In this document: one piece after another, positions 2,737 through 30,728 of the stretch
How positions within the stretch are numbered: position 1 is the stretch's first letter
Layout: each line of letters opens with the position of its first letter
Notes under the pieces: model-generated
The model's input: the letters and a program-made list of their open reading frames with translations, nothing else
The model's database searches: none
Told to the model about the DNA's origin: nothing
Assembly (NCBI GenBank): GCA_963719145.1
Contig: CAVRAX010000001.1
Coordinates: 71,544 to 135,543 of the forward strand
DNA from: an uncultured Chloroflexia bacterium
GTDB taxonomy: Bacteria; Chloroflexota; Limnocylindria; Limnocylindrales; CSP1-4
Direction: 5' to 3'
Length of the DNA: 64,000 nt
Made by a program: the position numbers and the translations under genes

Positions 2737-4422
2737 CTAGCCCTCGCCGAGCATCGGGACTCGGACGCCGCGCTCCCGAGCGACCTCGACCGCCCGGTCG
2801 TATCCGGCGTCGACGTGACGGAGGACGCCCATCGCCGGGTCCGTCGTCAGGACCCGCTCGAGCTTCTGCGCAGCGAGGTCTGTGCCATCCGCGACGACGA
2901 CCATGCCGGCGTGCTGCGAGTACCCGATCCCGACGCCGCCGCCGTGGTGGATGCTGACCCAGGTCGCGCCGGCAGCGGTGTTGACGAGGGCGTTGAGGAG
3001 CGGCCAGTCGGCGACCGCATCGGACCCGTCGAGCATCGCCTCGGTCTCGCGGTTGGGCGAGGCCACGGAGCCCGAGTCCAGGTGGTCCCGGCCGATGACG
3101 ATCGGGGCAGCGACCTCGCCCGTTCGGACCAGCTCGTTGAACGCCAGGCCGGCCTTCGACCGCTCGCCGTAGCCGAGCCAGCAGATCCGGGCCGGCAGGC
3201 CCTGGAACGGGACCCTGGCCTCGGCCATCTCGATCCAGCGCCGCAGGCCCGCATCCTCCGGGAAGAGCTCGAGGATCGCCCGGTCGGTCCGGAGGATGTC
3301 CTCGGGATCGCCGCTCAGGGCGGCCCAGCGGAACGGCCCGCGGCCCTCGCAGAACTGTGGCCGGATGAAGGCCGGCACGAAGCCCGGGTAGTCGAAGGCG
3401 TCCTCGACGCCGGCCTCGACCGCCATCGCCCGGAGGTTGTTGCCATAGTCGAAGACGACCGCGCCGGCCCGCAGGAACGACAGCATCGCCCGGACGTGGG
3501 CGCCCATCGCCCGGATCGACCGCCGGATGTACTCCTCGGGCTGGCTCGCGCGCAGGAGTAGCGCGTCGCCGAGCGCGATCTCGTCGGGCACGTAGCCGCC
3601 CAGTGGGTCATGGGCGGAGGTCTGGTCGGTGACGACGTCGAACTCCTCGCCGGCGGCGGCCCAGGCCGGCTCGATCTCGGCGGCGTTGCCGACGAGGGCG
3701 ATGCTCCGAGCCTCGCCGGCGGCCGCCCATGCCCGGGCCGTTGCCAGCGCCTCCGCCGGGTCCGCGGTGATGGCCTCCACGTAGCCGATGTCGAGGCGGC
3801 GCCGGGCCCGCTGCTCGTCGACCTCGATCGCCAGGCAAACGCCCTCGTTCATCGTCACCGCGAGGGGCTGCGCGCCGCCCATGCCGCCGAGCCCGGCCGT
3901 CAGCGTGACCCGGCCGCGCAGTGTTCCGCCGAAGTGCTGCCGGGCCAGCTCGGCGAACGTCTCGTAGGTGCCCTGGAGGATGCCCTGGGTGCCGATGTAG
4001 ATCCACGACCCGGCGGTCATCTGGCCGTACATCATGAGGCCCCGCCGTTCGAGGTCGCGGAAGTACTCCCAGGTGGCCCACTTCGCCACGAGGTTCGAGT
4101 TGGCGATGAGGACGCGAGGGGCCCACCCATGGGTCTGGAGCACGCCGACCGGCTTGCCGCTCTGAACGAGCAGTGTCTCGTCGTCGCCGAGGCGGCGGAG
4201 CTCGCGGACGATCGCGTCGAACGCGTCCCAGCTGCGGGCCGCCCGCCCTGTGCCGCCATAGACGACCAGGTTGTCGGGGTCCTCCGCAACCTCGGGATCG
4301 AGGTTGTTCATGAGCATCCGGAGGACGGCTTCCTGCTGCCAGCCGCGACACGAGATCTCGGTGCCGCGGGGGGCGCGGACCGGCCGGGCGCCTGGGAGAG
4401 GCTGACGAGCCTCGGTCACCAC
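2737..4422 (-). CDS. hutU: Urocanate hydratase (urocanase)
   Basis: 561 aa with full-length similarity to HutU, including conserved blocks [15 protein letters not shown] and [13 protein letters not shown]. Confidence 0.95.
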
Positions 4423-4522
4423 GCCATCCTAGCCGGCGCGCCTGCGCCGGTCGATGCGGCCGGGCCGTGGTGGAGCGGACCGGACGCCGGGGTCGGGCGG
4501 CAAGGCCGCGTCGAGGCCATCT

Positions 4523-5161
4523 TCAGCCATTCTCGGGTCGCAGGCCTTCGAGCAGCTGCTCGCCAAGCCGCCGCTCGCCGGCGGCCGTCGCCGAGATGAG
4601 GATGCCCCGTTCCTCGAGCCAGACGTGGTACGTATGCACGCCGCCCTTGCACGTCCCGATGTACGCGGTCCGACCGTCGATCTCGGTCTCGGCATGGCCG
4701 GAGACGCCACCGGCCTGGGAGCAGGCCCCCTCGTCGAACGAGTCGCGCCAGTCCCTGAAGACCGCGGCGTCCATGGCGCCCGGAAGCAGGCGCACGACCG
4801 TGGCGTAGACGAACTCGCCGGACACCGGATCAATGGCCAGGCCGGCGGCGATCGCCGACGCCACCCGTCCGAGGAGAGGGTCGCCGAGCGACGCCGCTTC
4901 CGCTTCCGTGCTCTCCACGAGTGCCAGCCCGTCGACCGCCTCCGGGAGCACCTGGAGGAGCGCCGGGTCGATGTCCACAGGAGACCCCGAGGCCGGCGTC
5001 GGGGTCGAGACGCCGGGAGAGGCGGTCGGCTGGTTCGCTTCGGTCGCGGACGCCGACTGCGCCCCCGTCGGGCTTGGCGGCGCCGTGACGACAGCCGGGC
5101 CACAGGCCGCCGCAAGCGCGCCGGGGACCAGGAGCCAGAGTGGATTCGGGCGGCGGCTCAC
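4523..5161 (-). CDS. Hypothetical lipoprotein
   Basis: 212 aa with a signal peptide and lipobox-like LAAAC. It lies between hutU and the GNAT gene and overlaps the upstream gene by 4 nt. Confidence 0.55.
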   Translation of the reverse strand: MSRRPNPLWLLVPGALAAACGPAVVTAPPSPTGAQSASATEANQPTASPGVSTPTPASGSPVDIDPALLQVLPEAVDGLALVESTEAEAASLGDPLLGRVASAIAAGLAIDPVSGEFVYATVVRLLPGAMDAAVFRDWRDSFDEGACSQAGGVSGHAETEIDGRTAYIGTCKGGVHTYHVWLEERGILISATAAGERRLGEQLLEGLRPENG

Positions 5162-5916
5162 AGCTCCCGCCGGAGGACCGGGAAGCGATCGTCGTCGACG
5201 GCGACGGCGAACCGGCAGGCTTGCCAGAACTCGGGCGTCGCGGCGCTCGTCGCCTCGGGCTTGGTCCGGCGTTCGGGGTACGCCTCGACCGCAGCGAAGC
5301 CACGGCCGGCCAGGTCGTCACAGACCTCCTCGACGAGACGGATCGCGTGACCCTGCCCGCGGGCCTCGGGTGTCGTGGCGATACAGGTGATGACCGCCGG
5401 GAGCGGGGCTGCCGGGAGCTGGCGATAGAGCTCACGGAGGCGCTGCGCGCGGGGGTACGCGGACAGCGGGCCGAACTGGACGTAGCCAGCGGAGCGGCCA
5501 TCGACCTCCAGGACCTTGGCGTAGGTCCCGAAGACGCCGAGCCCGCGGCCGAGCAGCTGAAGCTTGCGCGGCTGGCCGGCCCCGATCGTCGGGCGCGTCT
5601 CGCGCCGCGGCGCGAACGGATTGTCGACGGACTCGTCGGCATCGGGACCGAAGGGGTTGGGCCTGGATCCGGTGCCCGATGCTGCGAACGGATTGAAGCC
5701 GGGGCCCGAGGTCGGCGCGAACGGATTCGCCGGCGGTCGCGGCGCGGGCGCCGGGGACGCGGACGGATCCCACCACGAGAGTCTCGCCGCCTTCGAGCCT
5801 CGGTCGGCGTCCTCCCAGTAGTCGCAGCTCCGATGGTCGAACCCCGGATCCGCGCACGGCGGGAGGCGGGCGAACCCCTCGGCGTCCCGGATGTCGATGA
5901 TCCGAACGCTGGGCAT
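5158..5916 (-). CDS. GNAT-family N-acetyltransferase with an internal Pro-rich insert carrying four NPF motifs
   Basis: The C-terminal acetyl-CoA-binding GNAT core (ARGQGHAIRLVEEVCDDLAGRGF) is split by a low-complexity NPF-repeat segment. It starts 3 nt after the hutH stop. Confidence 0.6.
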   Translation of the reverse strand: MPSVRIIDIRDAEGFARLPPCADPGFDHRSCDYWEDADRGSKAARLSWWDPSASPAPAPRPPANPFAPTSGPGFNPFAASGTGSRPNPFGPDADESVDNPFAPRRETRPTIGAGQPRKLQLLGRGLGVFGTYAKVLEVDGRSAGYVQFGPLSAYPRAQRLRELYRQLPAAPLPAVITCIATTPEARGQGHAIRLVEEVCDDLAGRGFAAVEAYPERRTKPEATSAATPEFWQACRFAVAVDDDRFPVLRREL

Positions 5917-5919
5917 CGG

Positions 5920-7620
5920 TCAGGCCGGCGCCCGGACGCCCGCGACCTGCGAGCTCGAGCCGTGCGGGCCCGCACCGGCGATCGACGCGAGAGCGCCATC
6001 GTGGACGAGCGCGACGACCGCGCTCACGTCGGGGCCCAGCTCGCGGTCGACATCGACGAACCGTGCGGCGGCGCGCACCCGGGCGTGGCCCTCGCGAACG
6101 CCGACACCGGCCTCCACCCCGGCGAGCGTGGCAAGCCGGAGATCGAGGGCCTGGGCAGCGCAGATGGCCTCGATGGCGAGGATCCGTTCGACGTGCTCCA
6201 GGACCGTCCAGGCATGGCGACCCGCGATGGGGCCCATCGACACATGGTCCTCCTGGTTGGCGCTCGTAGGGATCGAATCCGCGCTCGCCGGATGGGCGAG
6301 GACCTTGTTCTCGGAGGCCAGCGCGGCGGCCGTGTACTGGAGGAGCATCAGGCCGGAGTCCAGCCCCGACGCCGGCGCGAGGAATGCCGGGAGACCGCCG
6401 TTCAGCGCCGGATCCAGGAGCAGGGCGGTCCGGCGTTCGCTGATCGAGCCCAGCTCGGCGATGGCGAGCTTCGCGAAGTCGAGGGCGAGGGCGATCGGCT
6501 CGCCGTGGAAGTTGCCGCCGGAGATCACCAGGCCGCCACCGGTCGCGATGGTGCCGGCGTCGGCGACCCCGCCACCCGGGAAGACGAGCGGGTTGTCGGT
6601 GGCCGAGTTGAGCTCGATGTCGAGGACGCGCCGGAGGTGGTCGAGGGCGTCGCGGACCGCGCCGTGAACCTGGGGAATGCAGCGGAGCGAGTACGGATCC
6701 TGGACCTTGTGATGCGACCCATGGTGGGACGCCTGCAGGCCGGAGTCGGCGAGCAGGGCTCGAAGCTCGGCTGCCACGGCGACCTGGCCGGGGTGCGGTC
6801 GCGCCAGCTGGTAGGCCGCGGCGAAGGCGACGTCGGTACCCAGGAGCGCCTCGACGCTCATCGCCGCGACGGTGCTCGCCGTCCGGACGAGGCGGTCGGC
6901 ATCGGCCAGGAGGAGCGCCCCGAGAGCGGACATCAGCTGGGTCCCGTTGAGGAGCGCGAGGCCCTCCTTGGGGCCCAGGGTCAGCGGCTCCAGCCCCACT
7001 TCGCGGAGGGCGACGAGGGCCGGCACGATCTGGCCGCCCAGCTCCACCGTCCCGCGGCCGATCAGCGGCAGGGCGAGATGGGCGAGAGGGGCGAGGTCCC
7101 CCGACGCGCCGACCGACCCCTGCGCCGGCACGACCGGATGGACACCGAGGCGCAGGAATTCGAGGAGACGATCCACCACCAGCGGACGAGCCCCGGAGTG
7201 GCCGAGGGCCAGGGTGTTCGCCCGGAGCAGGAGCATCGCCCGAACGACGTCCCGCGGCAGCGGCCCGCCGACGCCGACGGCGTGGCTCCTGAGGAGGTTC
7301 TCCTGGAGCCGCTCCACGTCCCCCATCGCGATCGAGCGATCGGCGAGGGCCCCGAACCCGGTCGTCACGCCGTACACGACGGCCCCCTCGGCGACCAGCC
7401 GATCGATGACCGCCCGCGCCTCCTCCATCCGCGCCCGCGCGTGGACGTCCAGGGCCGCGGCGGCCCCGCGTCGTGCGACCGCCTCGACATCGCCGATCGT
7501 CAGGTCGGCACCGGTGAGGACGATCGTGTCGCCGGCAGCCGGCGAGGGCGCGCGCTGCGGCACGAAGTGGGGGTCGGTCACGCGGGCAGGATAGTCGGCT
7601 ATGCTCCCCGGCGTCCCCAC
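5920..7620 (-). CDS. hutH: Histidine ammonia-lyase
   Basis: The catalytic-region motif GSVGASGDL is present, with overall HAL/PAL-family similarity. The track start at 7620 (GTG) overlaps the divergent DedA ORF. The true start may be an internal GTG near 7563. Confidence 0.9.
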   Translation of the reverse strand: MGTPGSIADYPARVTDPHFVPQRAPSPAAGDTIVLTGADLTIGDVEAVARRGAAAALDVHARARMEEARAVIDRLVAEGAVVYGVTTGFGALADRSIAMGDVERLQENLLRSHAVGVGGPLPRDVVRAMLLLRANTLALGHSGARPLVVDRLLEFLRLGVHPVVPAQGSVGASGDLAPLAHLALPLIGRGTVELGGQIVPALVALREVGLEPLTLGPKEGLALLNGTQLMSALGALLLADADRLVRTASTVAAMSVEALLGTDVAFAAAYQLARPHPGQVAVAAELRALLADSGLQASHHGSHHKVQDPYSLRCIPQVHGAVRDALDHLRRVLDIELNSATDNPLVFPGGGVADAGTIATGGGLVISGGNFHGEPIALALDFAKLAIAELGSISERRTALLLDPALNGGLPAFLAPASGLDSGLMLLQYTAAALASENKVLAHPASADSIPTSANQEDHVSMGPIAGRHAWTVLEHVERILAIEAICAAQALDLRLATLAGVEAGVGVREGHARVRAAARFVDVDRELGPDVSAVVALVHDGALASIAGAGPHGSSSQVAGVRAPA

Positions 7621-21283: not shown

Positions 21284-21640
21284 CCGGGCCGACGGCCGAA
21301 ACCGGCGACCATTGGTCGACTCGTTGACCGCCGGACGAGCCCGGGGCCGGTCGCAGCTAATCGCCGGGTGAGCGTTTGCCGCCACCATGGCGGCATGCCC
21401 AGCCCTCGACCGGCCGCGGTCGCGCGCCAAGCCTCGACTCCCGACTCGAACCGGAGGGCGGAGCTTGAGGCTCGCGTTGACACGGCCCGCGCGCCGTCCG
21501 TAGAGTTCGCGCCGCCTGGGCCCCCCATTCGCGAGTCGGACCCGAACGTCGAACCCGACCGGCAGGCGCGGATGCCGGTTGGACCGGGCCGACCGGCGGA
21601 GCCCGCGCCCAACCACGCTCCTGGAGGCCCGCTCGGCTCG

Positions 21641-24600
21641 ATGCCCGAGTACCCGGTTCAGATCAGCAAGGTCCAGGCGCCACCCCTCCGCGACGAGACG
21701 CTCGAGCGGGTCCGCCTCCTCGAGTGGTTGCACGTCAAGGTCCATCGGCGGGTGGTCCTGGTGACCGCCGAGGCCGGCTACGGCAAGACGACCCTGCTGG
21801 CGGACTTCAGCCGGCGCAGCCGGGTTCGCGCGCTCTGGTTCCGCCTCGACCGCGGCGATCGAGACTGGGTCGGCTTCCTCGCCTATCTCGTGGCTGCGTT
21901 GAGGATCCACCTGCCGACGTTTGCGCCGGTCACCCAGTCCCTGCTTCGAGAGACCGGGGCGACGGCTCCACCGCGGAGCACGGTGCTCGACACCTTCATC
22001 CGAGAGCTGGGCGAGCTCCCTCCCGACCCAACGGCCCTCATACTCGACGACCTTCACGCGGTCGACGACTCGGTGGACGTCAAGATCATCCTGCGCGAGC
22101 TGCTCGCGCGAGCCCCGGAGCGCCTGACGTTCGTCTTCATCAGCCGAAGACCACCGCCCGTCCCGCTGGCCCGCTTGCGCGCCCTCGGCGAGGTCGCCGA
22201 GCTGCGCACGGCCGAGCTCCGGTTCGATCCGGGCGAGACTGAGCAGCTCTTCCGGGAGACCTATTCGCTTGCCCTGGAGCCATCGGTTGCGGCCGAGCTT
22301 TCACGGCGAACCGAGGGCTGGGCCGCGTCCCTGCAGCTCGTTCGGACCGCCATCCGCGACAGGAGCCAGAGTGAGATCCGCGCATTCGTGAGCTCCTTGA
22401 GCGGCGCCGAGGGCGACCTCTACGACTACCTGGCTGAAGAGGTCGTAGGCGAACTTGCGTCGGATCTCCAGCAATTCCTGATGAAGACGTCGCTTCTCGA
22501 CACCGTCGAGCCGGTGCTCGGAAGCGTCGCGGCAGGAACCTCGCCCGAAGCCACGCGCGCCGCGATCACCGAGGGGGAGCTCATCGGCCTGTTCAGCCGG
22601 ACAGGCCCGCACACTCGCGACCAGGTCCGCGCCCATCCTCTCGTCCGGGACTTCCTGCAGGCCCGCCTCCTTCGTTCGGTTGGCCGGGAGGCGGTCGTCG
22701 CGATCCACCACGCCGTCGCGGTGGCTGCCGAACCGATCGACTGGCGGATCTCCGGCCACCACTACGTCGCCGCCGGCAGCACGGACGACGCTCGACGCGT
22801 CCTTGCCGACGCCATCGAATCAATCCTCGCAACTGGCGAATACGCGGCGGCTGAGGAGCTCGCGACCACGCTACCCGAAGCGGCAACACCAGATCCAAAC
22901 GTCCTCGTCGTCTTGTCGCGGACCGCGCAGCAGCGGGGCGAATCGGAGGTGGGCCGTGCATTCGCAGAGGCGGCATTCGGGGTCGAACCCGCGAAGCCTG
23001 CCGTGGTGCTGACCCTCGTGACAGCCCGACTGTGGGCCGGAGACATCTCTGGGGCGCTGACCGCGCTTGAGGGTCTCGAAGGCGCTCCCGGCAGCGCAAG
23101 CATTGCCTTGATGGCGCGCTCAATCCGACTGATGATCGCGTGCTCGGTCGATGGAAACCTCTCTACCGCAGCAGGCGCGCTCGAGAGCCTGGGCGCCATG
23201 CTCCGTGACCAATCGCAGCTTCACTTCTTGGGCGTTGCTCTGACGAACCTCGCGTACATCAGGAAGGCACAAGGGCGGGCGCCTGAGGCTCTGTCAATCG
23301 CAACCGAGGCGATAGGCGATCTTGAGTCCACGTCCGGAGGCATCGAGCTTGTCTCAGCGCGACTCGTGCGCGGCTGGGCCCTCGCGCACCTCGGTGACCT
23401 CGATTCCGCGCGTGACGAGATCGCGATTGCGTCGATCGCTGCAACGCCAGCTCAGGCGATCGAAGTTGCCTGGGAGGCTTGTGAGGTCGAGTTGCTCTAT
23501 GGAGACCCGAATCGAGCGAGCGATTGGGTAGAACCATTTGATGCGGTCCCTGCCGGGAGCGATCACGGTGAGCAGATCGCCCTCGTCGCCATCCATACGG
23601 ACCTACTGCTGGGCCGCCACGAGAAGGCCGCCACGAGGATTCTGGAACTTGTGCCTGGAGCTCCGAGAACCACGGTCGCATTCGAAGTCCGCCGCCTCCT
23701 TGTTGGAGCGCTCGCCTATGTCCTCGGCGCAGTCGCGGAAGGCTCGACGAAGGCCACAGCGGCCGTGGAGCTGGCGACCCGACAAGGCGCCGACCTTTGG
23801 TCCAGAGTCGCATCGATCCTCGCTGCGGCCTCGGAGGGCCGCGCCATTTCGCCGTTGATCCTGAGATCCGCTGGCCGGGATCCGGCAATCATGTCGATTT
23901 GTGCCGACACGGTTGCGCTGAGGCTAGGGGCGCTTGAGCAACCCGCGCTCGAGGCTGTTCAGCAGGAGGCCTCAAAGCGCAAGGAGCGATGGCGGCCAGC
24001 GCTCAGGCGCGCTTTGGAAGATGAGAATGACCGCACCCAGTACGCTGCTGCCATATTGCTCGATCGCGTCGGTTCAGCCGAAGACGTGTCTCGGCTGCGG
24101 CGAGCCGCACGAAACCTTCGATCACACCCCGACTCCTCGACTCTTGGCCGAGGCCTCGCGCGCCGGCTAGCTCCGCGCGTCGAGATCGAGGACCTGGGGA
24201 GGGTTCAACTTCGGATAGGCGACCGCGTAGTGGATGGCTCGACCATGCGACGCAAGGTACTTGCGCTCCTCTGCTACCTGATCACACGTCCAGGACAGAG
24301 TTCAACCCGAGAGGAGGTGCTCGAGGCGCTTTGGCCATCGCTCGCCCCGTCAACAGCGCTGAATTCCCTGAACCAGACTGTCTACTTCCTGCGCCGGGTG
24401 TTCGAGCCCACGTTCTCCGAAGATATTACGGCCGGATACCTCGGCCAAGACGGCGAGACCGTTTGGCTGGACCAAGAGCTGTTGAGTGCCAAGAGTCAGC
24501 GCTGCCGAGACATGATCCGGACCATGCCCGGAACACCTCGCCCCGAGGACGTCCTGACCTTGGCTGAGCTCTATAGGGGGCGATTTGCGCTCGACTTCAT

Positions 24601-24886
24601 GTACGAAGAGTGGGCAGGCGGCTACCGAGACTCGCTGCACGCTTCATATCTGCGGGTCGTAGAGGCCTCGTTGCGCCTAGACACAGACACAGGGCACTAT
24701 GCCCGTGGAATCGCCGTGGCCGAACTTGCGGCGGAGGTCGAACCGGACTCCGAGGAACTCCAGGTCGCGCTCTTGCGCCTCTATCGGCTTGCTGGGTCCT
24801 TCGCGGCTGCAGCCGAGCAGTACGGACACTATTCGCAGACGCTTCGCGAGATCGGAGTCGAGCCACAGCCGTTCGGCTCGCTCTAG
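21641..24886 (+). CDS. Large transcriptional regulator: MalT-like STAND ATPase N-terminus, helical/TPR-like middle region, C-terminal SARP module (OmpR-type wHTH + BTAD)
   Basis: The N-terminus (MPEYPVQISKVQAPPLRDETLERVRLLEWL...VLVTAEAGYGKTTLLADF...WFRLDRGD) resembles the MalT N-terminus with a Walker A motif. The C-terminus has a winged helix (RVQLRIGDRVVDGS...RRKVLALLCYLITRPGQSSTREEVLEALWP...LNQTVYFLRRVFE) followed by a BTAD. The start was trimmed to the ATG at 21641. The track start at 21368 is an alternative. Confidence 0.8.
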   Translation: MPEYPVQISKVQAPPLRDETLERVRLLEWLHVKVHRRVVLVTAEAGYGKTTLLADFSRRSRVRALWFRLDRGDRDWVGFLAYLVAALRIHLPTFAPVTQSLLRETGATAPPRSTVLDTFIRELGELPPDPTALILDDLHAVDDSVDVKIILRELLARAPERLTFVFISRRPPPVPLARLRALGEVAELRTAELRFDPGETEQLFRETYSLALEPSVAAELSRRTEGWAASLQLVRTAIRDRSQSEIRAFVSSLSGAEGDLYDYLAEEVVGELASDLQQFLMKTSLLDTVEPVLGSVAAGTSPEATRAAITEGELIGLFSRTGPHTRDQVRAHPLVRDFLQARLLRSVGREAVVAIHHAVAVAAEPIDWRISGHHYVAAGSTDDARRVLADAIESILATGEYAAAEELATTLPEAATPDPNVLVVLSRTAQQRGESEVGRAFAEAAFGVEPAKPAVVLTLVTARLWAGDISGALTALEGLEGAPGSASIALMARSIRLMIACSVDGNLSTAAGALESLGAMLRDQSQLHFLGVALTNLAYIRKAQGRAPEALSIATEAIGDLESTSGGIELVSARLVRGWALAHLGDLDSARDEIAIASIAATPAQAIEVAWEACEVELLYGDPNRASDWVEPFDAVPAGSDHGEQIALVAIHTDLLLGRHEKAATRILELVPGAPRTTVAFEVRRLLVGALAYVLGAVAEGSTKATAAVELATRQGADLWSRVASILAAASEGRAISPLILRSAGRDPAIMSICADTVALRLGALEQPALEAVQQEASKRKERWRPALRRALEDENDRTQYAAAILLDRVGSAEDVSRLRRAARNLRSHPDSSTLGRGLARRLAPRVEIEDLGRVQLRIGDRVVDGSTMRRKVLALLCYLITRPGQSSTREEVLEALWPSLAPSTALNSLNQTVYFLRRVFEPTFSEDITAGYLGQDGETVWLDQELLSAKSQRCRDMIRTMPGTPRPEDVLTLAELYRGRFALDFMYEEWAGGYRDSLHASYLRVVEASLRLDTDTGHYARGIAVAELAAEVEPDSEELQVALLRLYRLAGSFAAAAEQYGHYSQTLREIGVEPQPFGSL

Positions 24887-24887
24887 A

Positions 24888-25921
24888 TGTGATTCATGAG
24901 GACGTTGTTGACAGGTGAGAGCCCTGTCCGTGGGATTTGGGGTGTCTGGCTCCAAACCACGGGAGGGCTCTCACGATGCATCGTACGGCGAAGCTGACGG
25001 TGTTCGGCAGGCGGCTGCTGGTCGAACGGATCGAGCTTGAGGCTTGGCCGATCGCCCATGCCGCGGCGATGACCGGCGTGAGCCGCCAGACGGCCACCAA
25101 GTGGGTCCGGCGGTACCGGGCCGAGGGCCTGACCGGTCTCGAGGATCGCAGCTCCCGGCCGCATCGCTCGCCCCGCAGGCTCACGCCGGAGCGGGTCGCG
25201 GCGATCCTCGCCGCCCGCCACGAGCTGGGGTACGGCCCGCATCGCCTGGCGCCGGTCGTCGGCAGCCCGCGCTCGACGATCGGTGACGTCCTGCGCCGTC
25301 ATGGCCTGTCCCGGCTACGTGACCGCGACCGGCCGTCGGGTGTCCCGATCCGCTATGTCCGAGAGCGACCGGGCGAGCTCCTCCACATCGACGTCAAGAA
25401 GCTGGGGCGGATCCCCGACGGTGGCGGCCATCGGTTCCGCGGCCGGGGCAACGGCACACCCAAGGCGCGGTCCGGCTACGACTACGTCCATCAGGCCATC
25501 GATGACATGAGCCGGGTGGCCTATGTCGACGTCTTCGCCGACGAGCGTGGTCCGACCTGCGCCGCGTTCCTGCGCGATGCCGCGGCGTGGTTTGCTCGGC
25601 AGGGTGTCCGGATCGAGCGGGTCATGACCGACAACGCCCGCAACTACACCGTTTCGCGTGACTTCCAGGCGGCCCTCAGCGACCTCGGAGCCCGCCACAA
25701 GCGGACCCGCTTCCACCGGCCGCAGACCAACGGCAAGAGCGAGCGCTTCAACCGGACCCTGCTCGACGAGTGGGCCTACACCCGCCCGTACACGTCCAAC
25801 AACGAGCGGTTGCTCGCCCTGCCAGACTTCGTCGATCACTACAACAACCACCGACCCCACACCGCGCTGAACGGGCTCACGCCGATGGCGGTCCTCGTCA
25901 ACAACGTGTCCGGGAATCACA
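24888..25921 (+). mobile_element. IS481-family insertion sequence (~1034 bp) with imperfect terminal IRs and 6-bp TCTAGA target-site duplications
   Basis: The left IR is TGTGATTCATGAGGACGTTGTTGACAGG. The reverse complement of the right IR is TGTGATTCCCGGACACGTTGTTGACGAGG. TCTAGA flanks both ends (24882-24887 and 25922-25927). The NCTAGN target preference and TGTG termini are typical of IS481. Confidence 0.85.
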
Positions 25922-25926
25922 TCTAG
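24976..25926 (+). CDS. IS481-family transposase (DDE, rve integrase core)
   Basis: Starts MHRTAKLTVFGRRLLVERIELEAWPIAHAAAMTGVSRQTATKWVRRYR (HTH), followed by the rve core (LHIDVKKLG...DNARNY...TNGKSERFNRTL). Preceded by GGGAGGG. Confidence 0.9.
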   Translation: MHRTAKLTVFGRRLLVERIELEAWPIAHAAAMTGVSRQTATKWVRRYRAEGLTGLEDRSSRPHRSPRRLTPERVAAILAARHELGYGPHRLAPVVGSPRSTIGDVLRRHGLSRLRDRDRPSGVPIRYVRERPGELLHIDVKKLGRIPDGGGHRFRGRGNGTPKARSGYDYVHQAIDDMSRVAYVDVFADERGPTCAAFLRDAAAWFARQGVRIERVMTDNARNYTVSRDFQAALSDLGARHKRTRFHRPQTNGKSERFNRTLLDEWAYTRPYTSNNERLLALPDFVDHYNNHRPHTALNGLTPMAVLVNNVSGNHI

Positions 25927-26092
25927 ATCTAGAGCCCGATAGGTACAGATGCGTATTGACCGGTTTAGTTTGGGATCCCTATAGTCCTGACACTTCGTAG
26001 TACTCACGTACTAGGGAGCTCAGCCTAAAACGCTCGGACGCGCTGAAGCCGCACCTGAAATGGGCACTTAGGGTGGGGCGGAGCGAGTAGTG

Positions 26093-26125
26093 CAACCGAC
26101 CGACCACGTGTCTGGTCGGTTTTCG
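26093..26125 (+). terminator. Intrinsic terminator-like hairpin with a T-run
   Basis: gaCCGACCAcgtgtcTGGTCGGttttcgcgtcttt. This is probably the original terminator of the regulator gene, displaced about 1.2 kb by the IS insertion. Confidence 0.5.
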
Positions 26126-26210
26126 CGTCTTTACGATGCGGAGGCCGCAAGGAGGAACGAGCGTGCAGCCGGAAAGCACCCTTAAGGGCTTCTAGGTCGA
26201 GGAGATCGGC

Positions 26211-26300
26211 ATGAAAGCCCGAATCGTCCGATTGGCGATCACCTTGAGCGCCATTGCCGCCACAGCACTCGCCGGAGGGGCCACCCTCAAGGGCTTCTAG
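26211..26300 (+). CDS. Tiny hydrophobic ORF (29 aa, MKARIVRLAITLSAIAATALAGGATLKGF), speculative
   Basis: ATG behind GAGGAG. A 10-aa ORF 15 nt upstream (GTG behind AAGGAGG) ends with the same TLKGF-stop, encoded by a repeated CACCCTYAAGGGCTTCTAG element. Coding status is unproven. Confidence 0.25.
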   Translation: MKARIVRLAITLSAIAATALAGGATLKGF

Positions 26301-26377
26301 TACGTCTTGGCCATTCGGTCGCCCCAGCAAATGGGCGTAGAGTTTCGGACCGAAGGTCGAGGTCGTACGAAGAGCAA

Positions 26378-27787
26378 GTGACCAGGTCGCTCAAGGCGTA
26401 TATCACCGGGCTCGTGGGAGCCGCAGCAATTGTGCTGTTGGCCACGAGCCTTGTGATTCCTGTTGACGCACGCATTGCGCTCCAGTTCGATGCTGACCCC
26501 GCGAACGCCTCGCGCCTAGAGCTTCTTGCGGGCGTCGCATTCTGGACGGTCGTCACCCTATTTGCGTCCGCACTACCTGTGCGCTTGACGGACGGCGTCC
26601 AGGTGGCTGTTTCGATTGCTCCCCTTATGGCGGCAACCGCGCTTGGGGGTCCGACAGCCGGGGCTTGGGTAGCCTTGCTTGGCACGACAGACATGCGCGA
26701 GGTCCGTGGCAAGGTAATTTGGTACGGCACGCTCACGAACCATGCGGCGATCGTGCTTCCGGTCATTCTCGGCGGCTGGGTGATGTCGAGCCTTCGCGGG
26801 CCATCCGGCAACCTCCTCCAGGAACTTGCGGCAATCCTTGCCGGGTCACTGGTCTACTTCGCCCTCAACCTGATCTTTGTGTCGGCCATCGTGGTGCTGC
26901 GCGGCGGTCGCACGATCCGAGAGTTCCTAACCAAGGCGGAAACCGCGAACATCTGGGTGAACCTCGTAACGCTTGCCCCGCTCGGTTGGCTCATGGCCAG
27001 GATGTACGAGACCGAGGGGGCCGGATGGTGGACCACGCTCCTCTTCGCCCTGCCCCTGTACACGACCCGGGTTGCGTACCACCGGTTCGTCGAGATGCGC
27101 GACATGTTCACGCAGACGATCGGAGCACTCGCGCGGGCCGTCGACAAGCGCGATCCGTTCACCGCGGAGCACAGCCAGAACGTCCGGATGATCAGCGTCG
27201 ACATCGGCCGCGAGATGCGGGTCAGCGCGGCCGAGCTGGAGGCCCTGGAGTGGGGCGGGCTCCTTCATGACGTCGGCAAGATCGGCGTTCCCGACAAGAT
27301 CCTCCTGAAGCAGGAGCGCCTGACGCGCGAGGAGCGGATGGTGATGAACGCCCACCCTGTACTGGGCGCCGAGATCATTCAACCGGTCAACCGCCTCGCC
27401 GCCGAGTTGCCGATCATTCGCCACCATCACGAGTGGTTCAACGGCTCCGGCTACCCGGACCGGCTGATGGGCGACGAGATCCCGAGGCTGGCCAGGATCC
27501 TGCATGTCGCCGATGCGTTCGAGGCGATGACGGCCGCTCGTCCGTATCGCATGACGCCGCTCACCAATGAGCAAGCCCTGTCCGAGCTCCGCAAGTTCGC
27601 CGGCATTCAGTTCGACCCTGTCGTGGTCGATGCGTTCGTTCGAACGCGTTGGGCAGACGACGTCCGCGATCCGGGCCGCACGAACGAGCTTCGACCGATC
27701 CCGCTTCTCGGCCAGCACGCGGCGCGGGCGACGCAGCCAGCCTACGACGGTCCGGCGCCCGGTTCCCCCGCCTCCGACCTAGCCTGA
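26378..27787 (+). CDS. HD-GYP domain c-di-GMP phosphodiesterase with an N-terminal multi-TM sensor domain
   Basis: About 7 TM helices, then HD (GLLHDVGKIGVPD), HHEWFNGSGYP (the GYP motif) and the remaining HD-GYP core. GTG start behind GAAGAG. Confidence 0.85.
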   Translation: MTRSLKAYITGLVGAAAIVLLATSLVIPVDARIALQFDADPANASRLELLAGVAFWTVVTLFASALPVRLTDGVQVAVSIAPLMAATALGGPTAGAWVALLGTTDMREVRGKVIWYGTLTNHAAIVLPVILGGWVMSSLRGPSGNLLQELAAILAGSLVYFALNLIFVSAIVVLRGGRTIREFLTKAETANIWVNLVTLAPLGWLMARMYETEGAGWWTTLLFALPLYTTRVAYHRFVEMRDMFTQTIGALARAVDKRDPFTAEHSQNVRMISVDIGREMRVSAAELEALEWGGLLHDVGKIGVPDKILLKQERLTREERMVMNAHPVLGAEIIQPVNRLAAELPIIRHHHEWFNGSGYPDRLMGDEIPRLARILHVADAFEAMTAARPYRMTPLTNEQALSELRKFAGIQFDPVVVDAFVRTRWADDVRDPGRTNELRPIPLLGQHAARATQPAYDGPAPGSPASDLA

Positions 27788-27925
27788 TCACGGATCGCGT
27801 CCGCGGCAGGGTCACCCGGGACGCGTCCCAGCTCGGCCGCACGCCGTCATTGTCGAGCCCGCAGAATGCGCGCGTGGAGCCCGCAGGACGCACCGAGCCG
27901 GGGAGATGATCCTCGCGACTGACCC

Positions 27926-29995
27926 GTGCTGATCGGGGGTCTCGCGCTCGGCCTGATCCTGGGCCTCCTCGGCGGCGGGCGAATCGAACACCTCGCATCG
28001 ATTCGTTTCCGGCTGCTCCAGGCCACGTTCCTGGGACTCGTGATCCGGATCGCGACGCAGATCGCGATCGAGCAGGGCAATGCTCCGGCCGATGCCCTGC
28101 GGCTCCCGCTCTTCACGATCGCCTTCGTCCTCATCCTCGTCGGGTTGTGGGCCAACCGCGAGCAACCCGGCCTCAGCCTCGCGTTCGTCGGGGTTCTGCT
28201 GAACACGATCGTCATCACGATCAACAGCGGCTACATGCCGGTCTGGCAACCGGCCTACGAGGTCGCCGGGTTCGGGCCCGGGAACGACCTGGGCCCGCTC
28301 CACGTGATCGTCCCCGGCGTGGTCAGTGGTGACTTTCTTGTTCGTGCGGGACCGCTCGGGGACATCCTGCCGATCCCGCTTCCGCTCGTTCGAAACGTCG
28401 CGAGCCTGGGCGACGTCTTCCTCGGAATCGGCCTGGCGTTCTTCCTCTTCGCAACGACGATCAGGACGCCGGAGGAGCTCGATGAGGCAAGCCGCGAGGC
28501 GATCCGGCGCCGCCTCACCTCGATCGCCCCCGTGCGCGGCGCCGGCGTCGTGTCGACGACGGCGCTCGTGGCCCGTGGACTCGGGGCGACCACCACGCTC
28601 GAGAGGCCCGCGCTGTTGGGCGGGACTGCGGTTGGGGCGGAGACTGCGCTCGGGGGCGATTCGGCGCGTCGTGCCGTCGCGCTCGGTGCTCCAACGGCGC
28701 CGACGCCGCCATTGGCCTATTTCCCGGTCCCGGCGGTTCCGGCGGTACCGCCTCTCATCGAACGCGTCCGCCGCCACGCCTATGTGCGGCTCGCCCTCGA
28801 CGGCTCGTTCTCGGCCCTCTGGACCGGGCAGCTCGTGAGCCTGGTCGGCGACCGGCTTCACCAGGTCGCGCTGGCATTCGTCGTCCTGGATGCGACCGCT
28901 TCCCCGCTCGCGGTTGGTGCGGTCTTCTTCGTGGCTACGCTGCCGAACCTCATGTTCGGCCCGATCGCCGGCACGCTCGTCGACCGCTGGGATCACCGCG
29001 AGGTGATGATCGTGTCGGATCTGCTCAGAGCCGGCGTCGTTCTCCTGATCCCGGTCGCGGCCGTGACGAACCTGGCCCTCGTCTATCCGCTCGTCTTCCT
29101 CGTGACCACGATCTCGATCTTCTTCCGGCCGGCGAAGGTGGCGATTCTGCCGCGCCTCATCTCCAGCGACGATCTCGTCGCCGGTAACTCGGCGATGTGG
29201 GTGGCCGACACGTTCGCGGACATCGGCGGGTACGTCCTGGCCGGCCTGTTCGTCGCCGTCCTGGGCAGCCAGCTGCCGCTCGCCTTCTGGGCCGACGCGG
29301 TGACCTATATCGCGTCGGCGATCCTCATCGCCACGATCTCGGTCGCTCCGATGAAGCGAGTGGCGACCATGGCCGGCCGAGGTGAGGGCTTCCTCGCCGA
29401 GCTCGTCGAGGGCTGGCAATTCCTCCGGGGCGAGGCCGTCCTCCTCGCTAACACGATCCAGGCAACGGTCGGGCAATTCATGCTCGGCGTGTTCCTCGCC
29501 CTGACCCCGGTGTATGCCAAGGACGTCATCGATGCCGGCGCGCTCGACGCGAGCACGGCCTACTCCTTCCTCGAAGGCGCGATCGGTGCCGGGAACCTCA
29601 TTGGCGGCTTCGCGATCGGGCTCCTCGGCTCGAGGATGGCCCTCGGCAGGATGGTCATCTTCGGCTACGTCTGGACGGGGGCGTGCGTCGCGGCCCTCGC
29701 CTTCACCAGCAACCTCGGGCTCGCGATCGGGCTCTCGTTCGGCGCCGGCGTCGGGAACCTCGCCTTCGTCATTCCGAGCCAGACGCTCGTCCAGCGCCGG
29801 ACGCCCGAGGCGCTCATGGGTCGCCTGCTCGGACTCCGCTTCTCGTTGGTCTACGGCTCGATGACCGTGGCGATGGGCGTCGCCGGCGTCCTCGGTGAGA
29901 TCTTCGGCGCGGCGCCGGTCCTGGGTGCCTTCGGGCTGGTCACGGTCGCCGCGGGCCTGGCCGGGCTGTTGTTCCCGGCCGTCCGAGATGCGTGA
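27926..29995 (+). CDS. Fusion (or two unresolved in-frame genes): N-terminal DUF5317-like membrane domain plus C-terminal MFS transporter
   Basis: Residues 1-200 are a small polytopic domain. A ~90 aa linker is followed by an MFS region beginning LALDGSFSALWTGQLVSLVGDRLHQVALAFVVLD, with 12 TM segments. No stop codon lies between the two parts. Confidence 0.7.
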   Translation: MLIGGLALGLILGLLGGGRIEHLASIRFRLLQATFLGLVIRIATQIAIEQGNAPADALRLPLFTIAFVLILVGLWANREQPGLSLAFVGVLLNTIVITINSGYMPVWQPAYEVAGFGPGNDLGPLHVIVPGVVSGDFLVRAGPLGDILPIPLPLVRNVASLGDVFLGIGLAFFLFATTIRTPEELDEASREAIRRRLTSIAPVRGAGVVSTTALVARGLGATTTLERPALLGGTAVGAETALGGDSARRAVALGAPTAPTPPLAYFPVPAVPAVPPLIERVRRHAYVRLALDGSFSALWTGQLVSLVGDRLHQVALAFVVLDATASPLAVGAVFFVATLPNLMFGPIAGTLVDRWDHREVMIVSDLLRAGVVLLIPVAAVTNLALVYPLVFLVTTISIFFRPAKVAILPRLISSDDLVAGNSAMWVADTFADIGGYVLAGLFVAVLGSQLPLAFWADAVTYIASAILIATISVAPMKRVATMAGRGEGFLAELVEGWQFLRGEAVLLANTIQATVGQFMLGVFLALTPVYAKDVIDAGALDASTAYSFLEGAIGAGNLIGGFAIGLLGSRMALGRMVIFGYVWTGACVAALAFTSNLGLAIGLSFGAGVGNLAFVIPSQTLVQRRTPEALMGRLLGLRFSLVYGSMTVAMGVAGVLGEIFGAAPVLGAFGLVTVAAGLAGLLFPAVRDA

Positions 29996-30113
29996 CGGCC
30001 TGCTGTTCCCGGCCATCCGAGAAGCGACGACGGCCTGGGGATGAGGCGTTCGCGTACACTGGCGCGCGCGACGGTCGGGCTCGGCCGTCCGGACTGGAGA
30101 CCCACCACCCGCA

Positions 30114-30728
30114 ATGAGCGAGCGACCGAGCGACGCCTCCGAAGGGCCGATCGAGGGCCACGGCGAAGGGCCGGCCACCGACGATGATGGCCGCGGCGAA
30201 GAGGACTTCCCTCTCGAGGATGACGGCAGCATCGAAGCAGACGCGCCCGAGGAGACGGGCGACGCCGGTTGGGGCGGAAACGCAGACGATGAGTCGGCAG
30301 GCGAGGAGCAGGAACGCGACGAGGCCGCGGCGGTGGCGGCCGAAGCCGACATCGAACGGCATCGGGGCATGCGCCCAAGCGAGCGACGGGCCGCGCGGTC
30401 CCATGCCGAGCGCTCCCAGATCCAGGTCGATCCGTCCCTCCGGATCCGGGACCGAGCATCGTCCCTGTTCGTGCTGGTGACGGTCCTCGTCTTCGGCCTG
30501 ATCTTCCTCAACGGGTTGGTCCTCGGCAAGGGCGGCCTCCTGACCCCATTCCAGACGCCCACGCCGGTCCCGGTCCTGACGCCCTCACCGTCACCGAGCG
30601 AGACTCCGAGCTCCTCGCCGGCACCGACGAGCACGTCGGTTCCGCTACCGACTGCGACGCCAGTGGCGACATCAGAAGTGACGGCGGCACCGAGCGCCGC
30701 CCCCACTGCGACACCCGGCGCCTCCTGA
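30114..30728 (+). CDS. Hypothetical single-pass membrane protein with an acidic N-terminus and a Pro/Thr/Ser-rich C-terminal tail
   Basis: 204 aa. The cytoplasmic part is D/E-rich, followed by one TM helix (LFVLVTVLVFGLIFLNGLVLG), then PT-repeats. Confidence 0.5.
   Translation: MSERPSDASEGPIEGHGEGPATDDDGRGEEDFPLEDDGSIEADAPEETGDAGWGGNADDESAGEEQERDEAAAVAAEADIERHRGMRPSERRAARSHAERSQIQVDPSLRIRDRASSLFVLVTVLVFGLIFLNGLVLGKGGLLTPFQTPTPVPVLTPSPSPSETPSSSPAPTSTSVPLPTATPVATSEVTAAPSAAPTATPGAS

Follow-up and report, generated by a model that had tools for sequence, protein, structure and literature searches.

A c-di-GMP-II riboswitch leader with two micro-ORFs of co-varying C-termini upstream of an HD-GYP phosphodiesterase gene in uncultured Chloroflexota

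The window analysed here, a 64,000-nucleotide (nt) stretch of contig CAVRAX010000001.1 from an uncultured member of the Chloroflexota, carries at positions 25928–26377 the leader of a plus-strand gene for an HD-GYP phosphodiesterase, an enzyme that degrades cyclic di-GMP (c-di-GMP). This leader comprises a canonical c-di-GMP-II riboswitch followed by two micro-open reading frames (ORFs) of 10 and 29 codons (ORF1 and ORF2), which, judged by their substitution patterns, are real peptide genes under selection and whose C-terminal tails change together from lineage to lineage. In our overall account, to which we assign a probability of roughly 0.72, the riboswitch leader is native to the locus and would act as a c-di-GMP ON switch for the two peptide genes and a translationally coupled phosphodiesterase, the enzyme would close a feedback loop, and both peptides would act on a shared partner. 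The riboswitch alone is routine, being annotated by a standard Rfam scan, and its class is known; the clade-wide expression platform and the peptide cassette are new, and the point of interest is the peptide pair.

The riboswitch and the paired peptide genes

A homologue search with the HD-GYP protein provided 81 source DNAs, 76 of them with enough upstream DNA for testing the aptamer, and a second set of loci was drawn from metagenomes by the aptamer sequence pattern alone. Aptamer, hairpins, ORF1 and ORF2 were found again in ~150 independent loci, in the constant order riboswitch, ORF1, ORF2, HD-GYP gene; in the pattern-derived set, ORF1, ORF2 and an HD-GYP homologue were present in 68 of the 68 loci reaching far enough downstream. 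The riboswitch, the 10-aa ORF, the 29-aa ORF and a gene combining MASE9 and HD-GYP domains form a fixed module throughout an abundant group of uncultured soil and groundwater Chloroflexota.

The aptamer was located at 26027–26110 (plus strand) by the Rfam covariance model RF01786, which matched over its full length (model positions 1–84 of 84) at 65.4 bits (gathering score 53.5; E = 9e-14 locally, 2e-12 over the whole window). RF01786 was the sole Rfam family at gathering score in the 64-kb window and the best scorer of its clan. When 17 orthologous loci were scored against Rfam, all 15 with sufficient upstream DNA passed the gathering score (57–72 bits), and a custom covariance model, built from the orthologous aptamers and run on the 81 sources, found exactly one plus-strand copy in 76 of the 76 loci with enough upstream DNA; the five sources lacking a match all had 305 nt or less of it. 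The predicted structure consists of helices P1 (26032–26037 with 26100–26105), P2 (26039–26041 with 26083–26085) and P3 (26048–26055 with 26072–26079), along with complementary pseudoknot partners GCAC (26064–26067) and GUGC (26090–26093) that are invariant in 16 aligned loci. Over 76 sequences, 90.9% of the cells in the pair counts were paired, with none of 500 shuffles reaching the observed values; compensatory changes occurred in seven of the eight P3 pairs, and P2 changed on one side only. This makes the structured region a canonical c-di-GMP-II riboswitch, whose aptamer is predicted to respond to c-di-GMP.

An earlier note, made from the sequence of this stretch, had remarked on two segments reminiscent of, but not colinear with, a class I c-di-GMP aptamer. 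Both segments are present (GGACGCGCTGAAGCC, 26036–26050; CAGCCTAAAACGCTCGG, 26021–26037), as colinear parts of a class II aptamer, and class I itself (RF01051, GEMM-I) was not among the matches at E ≤ 10 in 24500–27000 and stayed below gathering score window-wide. That note had offered three readings of the interval: a leader-peptide attenuator or other cis-regulatory RNA, a duplicated peptide cassette, or the remains of the upstream regulator gene; it would have let the matter drop had there been neither a covariance-model hit nor any conservation of structure or peptides in relatives, or else no such region in alleles free of the adjacent insertion sequence (IS). A covariance-model match was obtained, relatives keep both structure and peptides, and the IS-free allele contains the region. 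The cis-regulatory RNA is borne out by RF01786, at a score above gathering, and the lower GC content noticed in the interval is likewise real, as expected of a non-coding leader with micro-ORFs.

The two short frames are in the sequence as they had been described, a GTG-initiated 10-aa ORF behind AAGGAGG and an ATG-initiated 29-aa ORF behind GAGGAG, both ending in TLKGF. ORF1 with its perfect Shine–Dalgarno sequence spans 26149–26195 on the plus strand (AAGGAGG, 26149–26155; GTG, 26163; TAG, 26193–26195), its predicted product being the leaderless decapeptide VQPESTLKGF. ORF2 occupies 26199–26300 of the same strand (GAGGAG, 26199–26204; ATG, 26211; TAG, 26298–26300) and specifies the 29-residue MKARIVRLAITLSAIAATALAGGATLKGF.

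ORF1 was evaluated in 57 unique relatives, a set selected for a G-[FWY] ending. Its start has the form AGGAGG-N6/7-GTG in nearly all of them (AGGAGG-N7-GTG in the window), with GTG as start codon in 54/57. Pro3 was seen in 51 sequences, Glu or Asp at position 4 in 41 and Lys8, which lay outside the search pattern, in 57/57; the last residue, aromatic by choice of the set, was W in 37, F in 16 and Y in 4 (TGG, TTC and TAC). The stop codons were TAG (45), TAA (11) and TGA (1).

ORF2 was assessed in 72 loci reached via the HD-GYP protein, with a search pattern that fixed A-G-G. It is exactly 29 aa long in 70/72 loci, and entropies at the first, second and third codon positions were 0.87, 0.53 and 1.53. 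In the A-G-G-A-S block, where A-G-G is fixed by the pattern and A24 and S25 are free, codon positions 1 and 2 did not vary at all and the third position had an entropy of ~1.8 bits. By pattern inspection, the peptide is laid out as a basic MK.R..R start, 13 hydrophobic residues, A-x-A, GG and a tail of 6–8 residues (A19 in 69/72 loci; A21 and G22-G23 in 72/72, these being pattern-fixed), and it looks like a Sec-type signal peptide or a single-pass membrane helix.

Because substitutions are of the coding type, the length of ORF2 is fixed, and starts and frame are kept, we regard both micro-ORFs as genuine peptide genes maintained by selection. The coding signatures and the tail co-variation described below place them among the stronger purely computational cases for sub-30-aa ORFs as genes, a class that gene callers mostly overlook or extend wrongly.

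Neither peptide belongs to a Pfam or NCBIfam family. Searching a collection of 5.8 billion proteins with an ORF2 profile, for which each 29-aa sequence was doubled head to tail, brought up nothing beyond this family in its usual setting: 149 proteins of 31–90 aa, none with a Pfam domain and, where named, hypothetical save for two incidental automatic names. NOVOEXAE was considered as the family of a tandem variant of ORF1 and discarded, the match (0.043) being noise. Many database calls of 55–90 aa (P0123, P0126, P0128 and others) begin with VQPTD or MQPTD; since VQPTD is the translation of the riboswitch sequence GUGCAACCGACCGAC run into ORF2, these proteins are systematic mis-annotations. 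In four metagenomic variants (P0121, P0124, P0192 and P0234) the ORF2 stop is replaced by a Tyr codon (...GF-Y...) and followed by 15–28 further residues. Two loci (L058 and L079) show, ~170 nt upstream of the HD-GYP start, a frame ending ...LAGGASLRVF* without ATG, GTG or TTG at the usual position, and ORF2 in this sub-lineage may be in decay or may begin at an unconventional codon.

Within ±5 kb, the 81 sources contained no further copies of the peptide genes, apart from L048 with a local duplication and L059 with a displaced copy. In L048 (3801–6383), riboswitch, ORF1 and an ORF2 copy are followed by a truncated, MASE9-only gene of 226 aa (4157–4837), a second ORF2 (4834–4923) and the full HD-GYP gene (4974–6383); the duplicated unit comprises ORF2 plus the MASE9 part.

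The common ending of the two window peptides, TLKGF plus stop, is encoded by a 19-nt direct repeat with 18/19 identical positions (95%): copy 1 in ORF1, CACCCTTAAGGGCTTCTAG at 26177–26195, and copy 2 in ORF2, CACCCTCAAGGGCTTCTAG at 26282–26300, both on the plus strand and each lying one base lower than first reported. Of the palindrome that had been pointed out in this repeat, CCCTTAAGGG is present in copy 1, copy 2 reads CCCTCAAGGG, and relatives do not conserve it; as a functional site it was rejected, being a one-copy, unconserved by-product of the Thr-Leu-Lys-Gly codons.

Comparing the tails over 151 unique loci, we found the C-terminal five residues to be identical between ORF1 and ORF2 in 31, as opposed to 1.2% of non-cognate pairs, in which ORF1 and ORF2 of different loci were combined as a control. 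Fourteen distinct tails were matched in 5/5 residues (TLKGF, SLKGF, SIKGF, SVKGF, TVKGF, SVKGW, SLKGW, SAKGW, ALKGW, SLKGY, TLKPW, TLKPF, AVKPF and SLKSF); the pentapeptides have the general form [ST]-[LIV]-K-[GP]-[FWY]. Same-residue tail codons differ between ORF1 and ORF2 in 36% of cases, and the difference was the same for cognate (33%) and non-cognate (34%) pairs; in most loci with Ser-initial tails, Ser is encoded by AGC in ORF1 and by TCN in ORF2. Since cognate pairs share codons no more than non-cognate ones do and the Ser codon families differ, gene conversion was rejected as the sole cause of tail identity, and the tails appear to co-evolve, kept alike by selection on the peptides. 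With coding-type conservation across the clade and co-varying C-termini, the duplicated peptide cassette among the three early readings has held up.

Three loci, L024 (1200–1290), L027 (4740–4830) and L047 (4700–4800), carry an ORF1 lengthened in frame by two or three additional tandem copies of the tail unit, e.g. SSVTKGF three times or VTKGW four times with TVLA between. The copies in L027 keep ITKGW, with divergent spacers between them.

Expression platform and the proposed coupling and feedback

The hairpin with T-run that had been noticed behind the structured region is indeed present (26094–26121, TTTT at 26120–26123). In this terminator-like hairpin, T1 (26094–26123, plus strand), AACCGACCGAC (26094–26104) pairs with GUC-U-GGUCGGUU (26110–26121) to form an 11-bp GC-rich stem followed by UUUU; stem and UUUUCG do not vary in 16 loci and hardly do so in 53. 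The 5′ arm of T1 includes the P1 3′ strand (26100–26105) and the conserved CAACCG junction, for which T1 is predicted to compete with the aptamer, and the fold with T1 reached −39.8 kcal/mol compared to −23.1 kcal/mol with P1/P2/P3 enforced, ligand energy being left out. As the T1 5′ arm shares the P1 3′ strand and the T1 fold is the more stable one without ligand, T1 is read as a likely termination site and the leader as a probable ON switch of the customary kind, working by c-di-GMP-dependent antitermination. A leader-peptide attenuator of the trp/his type, the other half of the early cis-regulatory reading, was dismissed: the two ORFs begin 40 nt or more behind T1, and a run of regulatory codons is missing from both.

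A second hairpin, H2 (26118–26146, plus strand; GGUUUUCGCGUC / GAUGCGGAGGCC, 12–13 bp), was recovered by RNAalifold from 53 loci with 13 pairs and compensatory changes in six of them (variants CGUG/CACG, CGCG/CGCG, CAUG/CAUG and UGUG/CACA). It joins the U-tract of T1 to a GGAGG/GAAGG run, leaving 2 nt between its 3′ end and the Shine–Dalgarno sequence of ORF1.

Further downstream, a long-range helix, H3 (26293–26375, plus strand), joins 26293–26318 with 26350–26375, as indicated by an inverted repeat and a duplex energy of −30.7 kcal/mol in the window. Its 5′ side consists of the last ORF2 codons, the stop codon and the next 18 nt, its 3′ side of the 26 nt before the HD-GYP start, so that the Shine–Dalgarno sequence of the latter is covered (GAAGAG, 26369–26374; GAAGAG or GAGGAG across loci). 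In the phylogenetically non-independent set of loci, 9.5 pairs were expected between the two zones compared to 2.6 in shuffles, 85% of loci had at least five pairs vs. 22%, and cognate H3 arms paired more strongly than non-cognate ones (−19.8 vs. −16.1 kcal/mol, p = 3e-8). RNAalifold returned an empty consensus for the ORF2–HD-GYP spacer from a poor MAFFT alignment; the above values come from per-sequence pair probabilities and the duplex test. The distance from ORF2 stop to HD-GYP start is 64–89 nt in all loci but one. The gap between ORF1 and ORF2 is 2–33 nt, and the UAGGAG containing the ORF2 Shine–Dalgarno sequence often overlaps the ORF1 stop. As a ribosome ending on ORF2 would open H3, this arrangement suggests that ORF2 and the HD-GYP gene are translationally coupled.

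Two features mark the ORF ends. Stops of the UAG/UAA type, read by release factor 1 (RF1), close 56/57 ORF1 (98%) and 65/72 ORF2 sequences (90%) compared to ~30% of long ORFs, ~70% of which end in UGA; RNA pairing, the UAGGAG overlap with the next Shine–Dalgarno sequence or a need for RF1 may lie behind this bias. In the last three codons of ORF2, third-position variability falls, a drop that H3 pairing may explain.

Taken as a sequence of events, our account would run as follows. A σ70-type promoter would start an RNA beginning with a hairpin, P0, and continuing into the aptamer. Without ligand, T1 would form and transcription would most likely halt there; with c-di-GMP bound, P1 and the pseudoknot would hold the shared strand, and RNA polymerase would read through into ORF1, ORF2, the MASE9–HD-GYP gene and possibly the DUF5317–MFS transporter gene behind it. 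ORF1 would load ribosomes, ORF2 would be translated, and termination on ORF2 would unmask the phosphodiesterase start. High c-di-GMP would then induce its own degrading enzyme in a homeostatic negative feedback, and the two peptides would act on one shared partner. The observations behind this scheme are the identity of the riboswitch, its conservation, coding selection, tail co-variation and the RNA complementarities; ligand response, termination, coupling, peptide export and the partner's identity are its predicted parts.

Several points weigh against this account. It was derived entirely by sequence computation on a metagenome-assembled genome (MAG) of an uncultured organism. In the aptamer, P1 has four solid pairs and a C.C mismatch kept in 68/71 loci and is hence short, the window's P3 carries one G.G mismatch, and the invariant pseudoknot sequence offers no covariation to count. 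The U-tract of T1 consists of four U only, was not called by a consensus terminator scan and can alternatively pair in H2. That scan found one terminator over 20 kb of this genome (~70% GC) vs. 5.8 expected from shuffles, and its criterion may be unsuited to the organism. For H3, phylogenetic non-independence tempers the coupling statistics, and ~15% of loci have fewer than five predicted pairs. As for the peptides, the RF1-type stop bias could point to a nascent-chain function at termination instead of free peptides; in some loci the tails are identical in 18/18 nt, so gene conversion may contribute to their co-variation; and the putative export and A-x-A cleavage of the ORF2 peptide, like the candidate binding to MASE9, follow from sequence pattern, and a 29-aa chain is too short for co-translational targeting.

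Candidate partners and competing explanations

Because the C-terminal pentapeptides co-evolve, the two peptides most likely act on one common partner. To our knowledge, no ligand is known for any MASE9 sensor domain. Our best guess for the partner is the membrane-embedded MASE9 sensor of the co-translated phosphodiesterase, which we favour over the tetratricopeptide repeat (TPR)-containing regulator encoded upstream because MASE9 has been proposed to bind its ligand inside the membrane (bioRxiv 10.1101/2021.11.05.467447) and because ORF2 and the MASE9 part were co-duplicated in L048. That the co-evolving micro-proteins are ligands or subunits of either the MASE9–HD-GYP sensor or the adjacent STAND/TPR/SARP regulator is a tentative proposal, with the odds somewhat against it. 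If true, it would connect the balance of c-di-GMP with peptide signals throughout an entire class of uncultured Chloroflexota from soil and provide the first candidate ligand for a MASE9 domain.

Among the alternatives, the one that survives best, unlikely as we hold it to be, takes the micro-ORFs as regulatory upstream ORFs (uORFs) only: K-G-aromatic-stop would be the end of a peptide that stalls the ribosome at termination and is functionless once free, the lingering ribosome keeping the next binding site open and possibly sensing a small molecule. TnaC, SpeFL and similar stop-codon arrest peptides demonstrate that ribosomes can be stalled in this way, and like them the present cassette pairs short leader ORFs and a conserved C-terminal motif with a particular stop class upstream of a masking structure. 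Both ORFs share their terminal tripeptide and stop, each stands directly upstream of a dependent cistron, and the RF1-type stops and the third-position drop at the end of ORF2 fit the idea. Given the conserved ribosomal tunnel, however, one would expect an arrest motif either to stay the same or to drift in each ORF on its own, whereas the pentapeptides change together between species, with 14 different tails matched in 5/5 residues. Amino-acid selection spans all 29 residues of ORF2, including the basic N-terminus and A-x-A-G-G, and the three loci with tandem tail units repeat the motif in frame without a following stop. The likeness to TnaC and SpeFL has its limits: the peptides described here have no sequence similarity to them, and their motif co-varies between two ORFs and between species and occurs internally in the tandem variants.

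Next in rank, and improbable too, is the idea that ORF1 and ORF2 are precursors of a single diffusible signal peptide, with ORF2 cleaved after A-x-A to release GGA[ST][LIV][KR]G[FW] or a shorter product that would be sensed by the STAND/TPR/SARP regulator and might be exported by the downstream major facilitator superfamily (MFS) transporter. TPR receptors sense peptides in RRNPP systems, whose pheromone precursors (Phr, PapR, SHP) bear signal peptides. ORF2 shows the same layout, in which a hydrophobic or export segment is followed by a short peptide at the C-terminus, the tail diversifies between lineages yet is matched in both precursors, the conserved upstream neighbour encodes a TPR and SARP-type regulator, a conserved GATAGGTA...CGTATTGACC region overlaps the −35 box of the leader promoter, an MFS_3 transporter is the conserved downstream neighbour, and the tandem tail units resemble multi-copy peptide precursors. 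Gene order is conserved so widely in the two relatives examined, however, that adjacency carries little weight. Neither a peptidase nor an Opp permease nor an RRNPP-family domain turned up, and the two relatives have no Opp genes within 10 kb; secretion and cleavage are predictions only, and the TPR matches of the regulator fall below Pfam thresholds. Unlike in RRNPP systems, ORF1 has no export signal, the regulator is of STAND/SARP type, and the cassette is under riboswitch control and tied to a phosphodiesterase.

Far less credible is a role of the repeat CACCCTYAAGGGCTTCTAG as an RNA or DNA element, either a palindromic protein site or an internal Shine–Dalgarno-like AAGGG, with the ORFs being incidental. 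The 18/19 identity of the repeat, the palindrome CCCTTAAGGG of copy 1, the strong preference for AAG GGC with its low third-position entropy, the loci with 18/18 identical tails and the RNA role of the ORF2 end in H3 all agree with such an element. Yet the palindrome is missing from copy 2 and from most relatives, the last residue alternates between TTC, TGG and TAC, staying aromatic though the codons are several bases apart, Ser is AGC vs. TCN in most Ser-initial loci and 36% of same-residue codons differ, and starts, Shine–Dalgarno sequences, frame and the 29-codon length of ORF2 are all kept. Least credible of all is that the leader is debris (a remnant of the regulator's 3′ region, IS-borne sequence, or an aptamer that has decayed or become a non-c-di-GMP variant): it adjoins an IS481-family element and the window's aptamer has the P3 mismatch and 65 bits vs. 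up to 72 in relatives, but an IS-free allele has the same leader, 76/76 loci carry it, the regulator ORF is complete, and the canonical family is the best clan scorer, above gathering score.

Our preferred account, a riboswitch-controlled peptide cassette coupled to its phosphodiesterase, combines traits of several known systems. In its treatment of the riboswitch class (Lee et al. 2010 therein), PMC12564702 associates c-di-GMP-II motifs with c-di-GMP turnover genes. The present aptamer conforms to the class in its full length, in P1, P2 and P3, in P3 covariation, in the GCAC/GUGC partners, in its position upstream of a c-di-GMP turnover gene and in a terminator-type platform sharing the P1 3′ strand. 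In contrast, its hosts are Limnocylindria-type Chloroflexota MAGs, the class being best known in Clostridia; its P1 is short with a conserved C.C mismatch and flanked by conserved P0 and H2; and the regulated gene lies ~270 nt downstream, behind two micro-ORFs.

Riboswitch-controlled uORFs on which downstream translation depends have precedents in the B12 riboswitch of Mycobacterium tuberculosis ppe2 (PMC11260477) and in the SAM-II riboswitch of Sinorhizobium meliloti metA (PMC9373788). As there, a short ORF lies between riboswitch and main gene, and its translation is a predicted requirement for main-gene expression. Unlike there, two uORFs follow one another, the apparent target of the riboswitch is transcription instead of uORF initiation, and the peptides are strongly conserved and seem to co-evolve. 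KdpF, CydX and MgrB-type modulators are small membrane proteins whose genes share an operon with that of the partner. ORF2 resembles them in its ~29 aa, its one hydrophobic helix, its place directly upstream of a polytopic membrane protein and its predicted coupling to it, and differs in that it has no sequence similarity to them, the soluble 10-aa ORF1 with the same tail has no counterpart there, and an interaction with MASE9 is hypothetical.

Literature searches on c-di-GMP-II in Chloroflexi, on c-di-GMP in Limnocylindria, and on a riboswitch combined with small protein, coupling and phosphodiesterase brought up nothing relevant, and we found no family or paper describing a conserved co-evolving micro-protein pair in a riboswitch expression platform. 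The leader would add another case of cooperation between riboswitch and uORFs, might tie peptide signalling to c-di-GMP homeostasis and offers a candidate MASE9 ligand.

Promoter, neighbouring genes and insertion element

A promoter scan identified a σ70-type promoter at 25956–25985 on the plus strand (TTGACC, 18-nt spacer, TATAGT) as the sole promoter-like site in the interval, with 10/12 consensus positions and 0.2 chance matches expected. Across 70 loci, TTGACC was kept in 66, the 18-nt spacer in 66 and TATAGT in 53, and transcription is predicted to start at ~25992. About 10 nt upstream of the −35 box, at 25938–25945 (plus strand), most rows of the 70-locus listing contain, by eye and uncounted, the motif GATAGGTA, which may be a regulator site. 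At 25938–25961 of the window, GATAGGTA-N(~6–8)-CGTATTGACC stands beside the −35 box, as in most of the 70 loci, with GTA-containing half-sites spaced approximately one helical turn apart; the pair may be a binding site of the adjacent SARP-type (BTAD) regulator.

The predicted transcript begins with hairpin P0 (25993–26018, plus strand; CUUCGUAGUAC-N4-GUACUAGGGAG), defined by conservation and pair counts. Its core AGUAC/GUACU is invariant in 58 loci. In a manually written structure, 86% of cells pair over 11 pairs, five of which change on both sides; this covariation is weak, as 13/500 shuffles reach the observed value, and RNAalifold recovered only the invariant core. The P0 arms resemble the H3 arms CUUCUAGUAC and GUACGAAGAG (26293–26302 and 26364–26375), and a minimum-free-energy fold of the whole leader swaps the strands of P0 and H3, pairing the leader 5′ end with the region before the HD-GYP start. 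The swap is not taken for a real structure, given that a clade with another P0 (GCACUAGUAC...) has no matching change.

The HD-GYP gene itself (26378–27787, plus strand) encodes 469 aa with MASE9 and HD-GYP (HD_5) domains according to Pfam and homologue names; HD and GYP motifs are both present, and homologues are named HD-GYP domain-containing protein. Hundreds of them, with 60–95% identity, were found in metagenome-assembled Chloroflexota, mostly labelled Limnocylindria or Limnocylindrales. The gene is followed on the same strand by a DUF5317 + MFS_3 transporter fusion (27926–29995; Pfam), which is the same neighbour in two relatives and may belong to the same operon. Overlapping the fusion gene, a minus-strand ORF of 964 aa (27812–30706) matches nothing in Pfam or NCBIfam; it is probably an artefact of the high GC content. 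Upstream, at 21368–24886 (plus strand), lies the regulator gene (1172 aa), with AAA/STAND, TPR, OmpR-type winged helix-turn-helix and BTAD (SARP-like) regions by Pfam, its sub-threshold TPR matches being accompanied by AAA and BTAD domains. The two relatives examined keep an upstream neighbour with AAA_16, WHD_MalT and BTAD, and in both the gene order is preserved across the wider region (LexA, DnaB, dodecin and beyond).

Between regulator and leader, and outside the latter, an IS481-family element occupies 24888–25921 (plus strand). It agrees with that family, with a DDE transposase carrying a leucine zipper (ORF 24937–25926; Pfam LZ_Tnp_IS481, 3.8e-21, rve and rve_3), inverted-repeat ends TGTGATTC...GAATCACA (36 nt, 81% complementary) and flanking TCTAGA, in line with the NCTAGN target duplication of the family. 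TCTAGA occurs once to the left (24882–24887) and twice to the right (25922–25933), which leaves the IS ends uncertain by ±6 nt. The insertion point is exactly the regulator stop codon. Only ~10 nt separate the right IS end from the conserved GATAGGTA motif, and the −35 box follows 35 nt after that end, the leader promoter being undamaged.

The third of the early readings, that the interval is what remains of the regulator's 3′ region, did not survive: the regulator ORF is complete and intact to 24886 (stop codon TAG, 24884–24886), and the IS-free allele has the same 444-nt leader. This allele, L081, is the closest relative found (HD-GYP 95% identical) and lacks the IS; its regulator stop is followed by the 444-nt leader, ~95% identical to the window leader minus the IS. 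As an IS-free allele carries the same leader, the leader is native to the locus. Relative to L081 (GTTCTAGCCCG), the window contains ~8 additional bases at the IS site, which could belong to the IS end or have been left as a footprint by a previous insertion.

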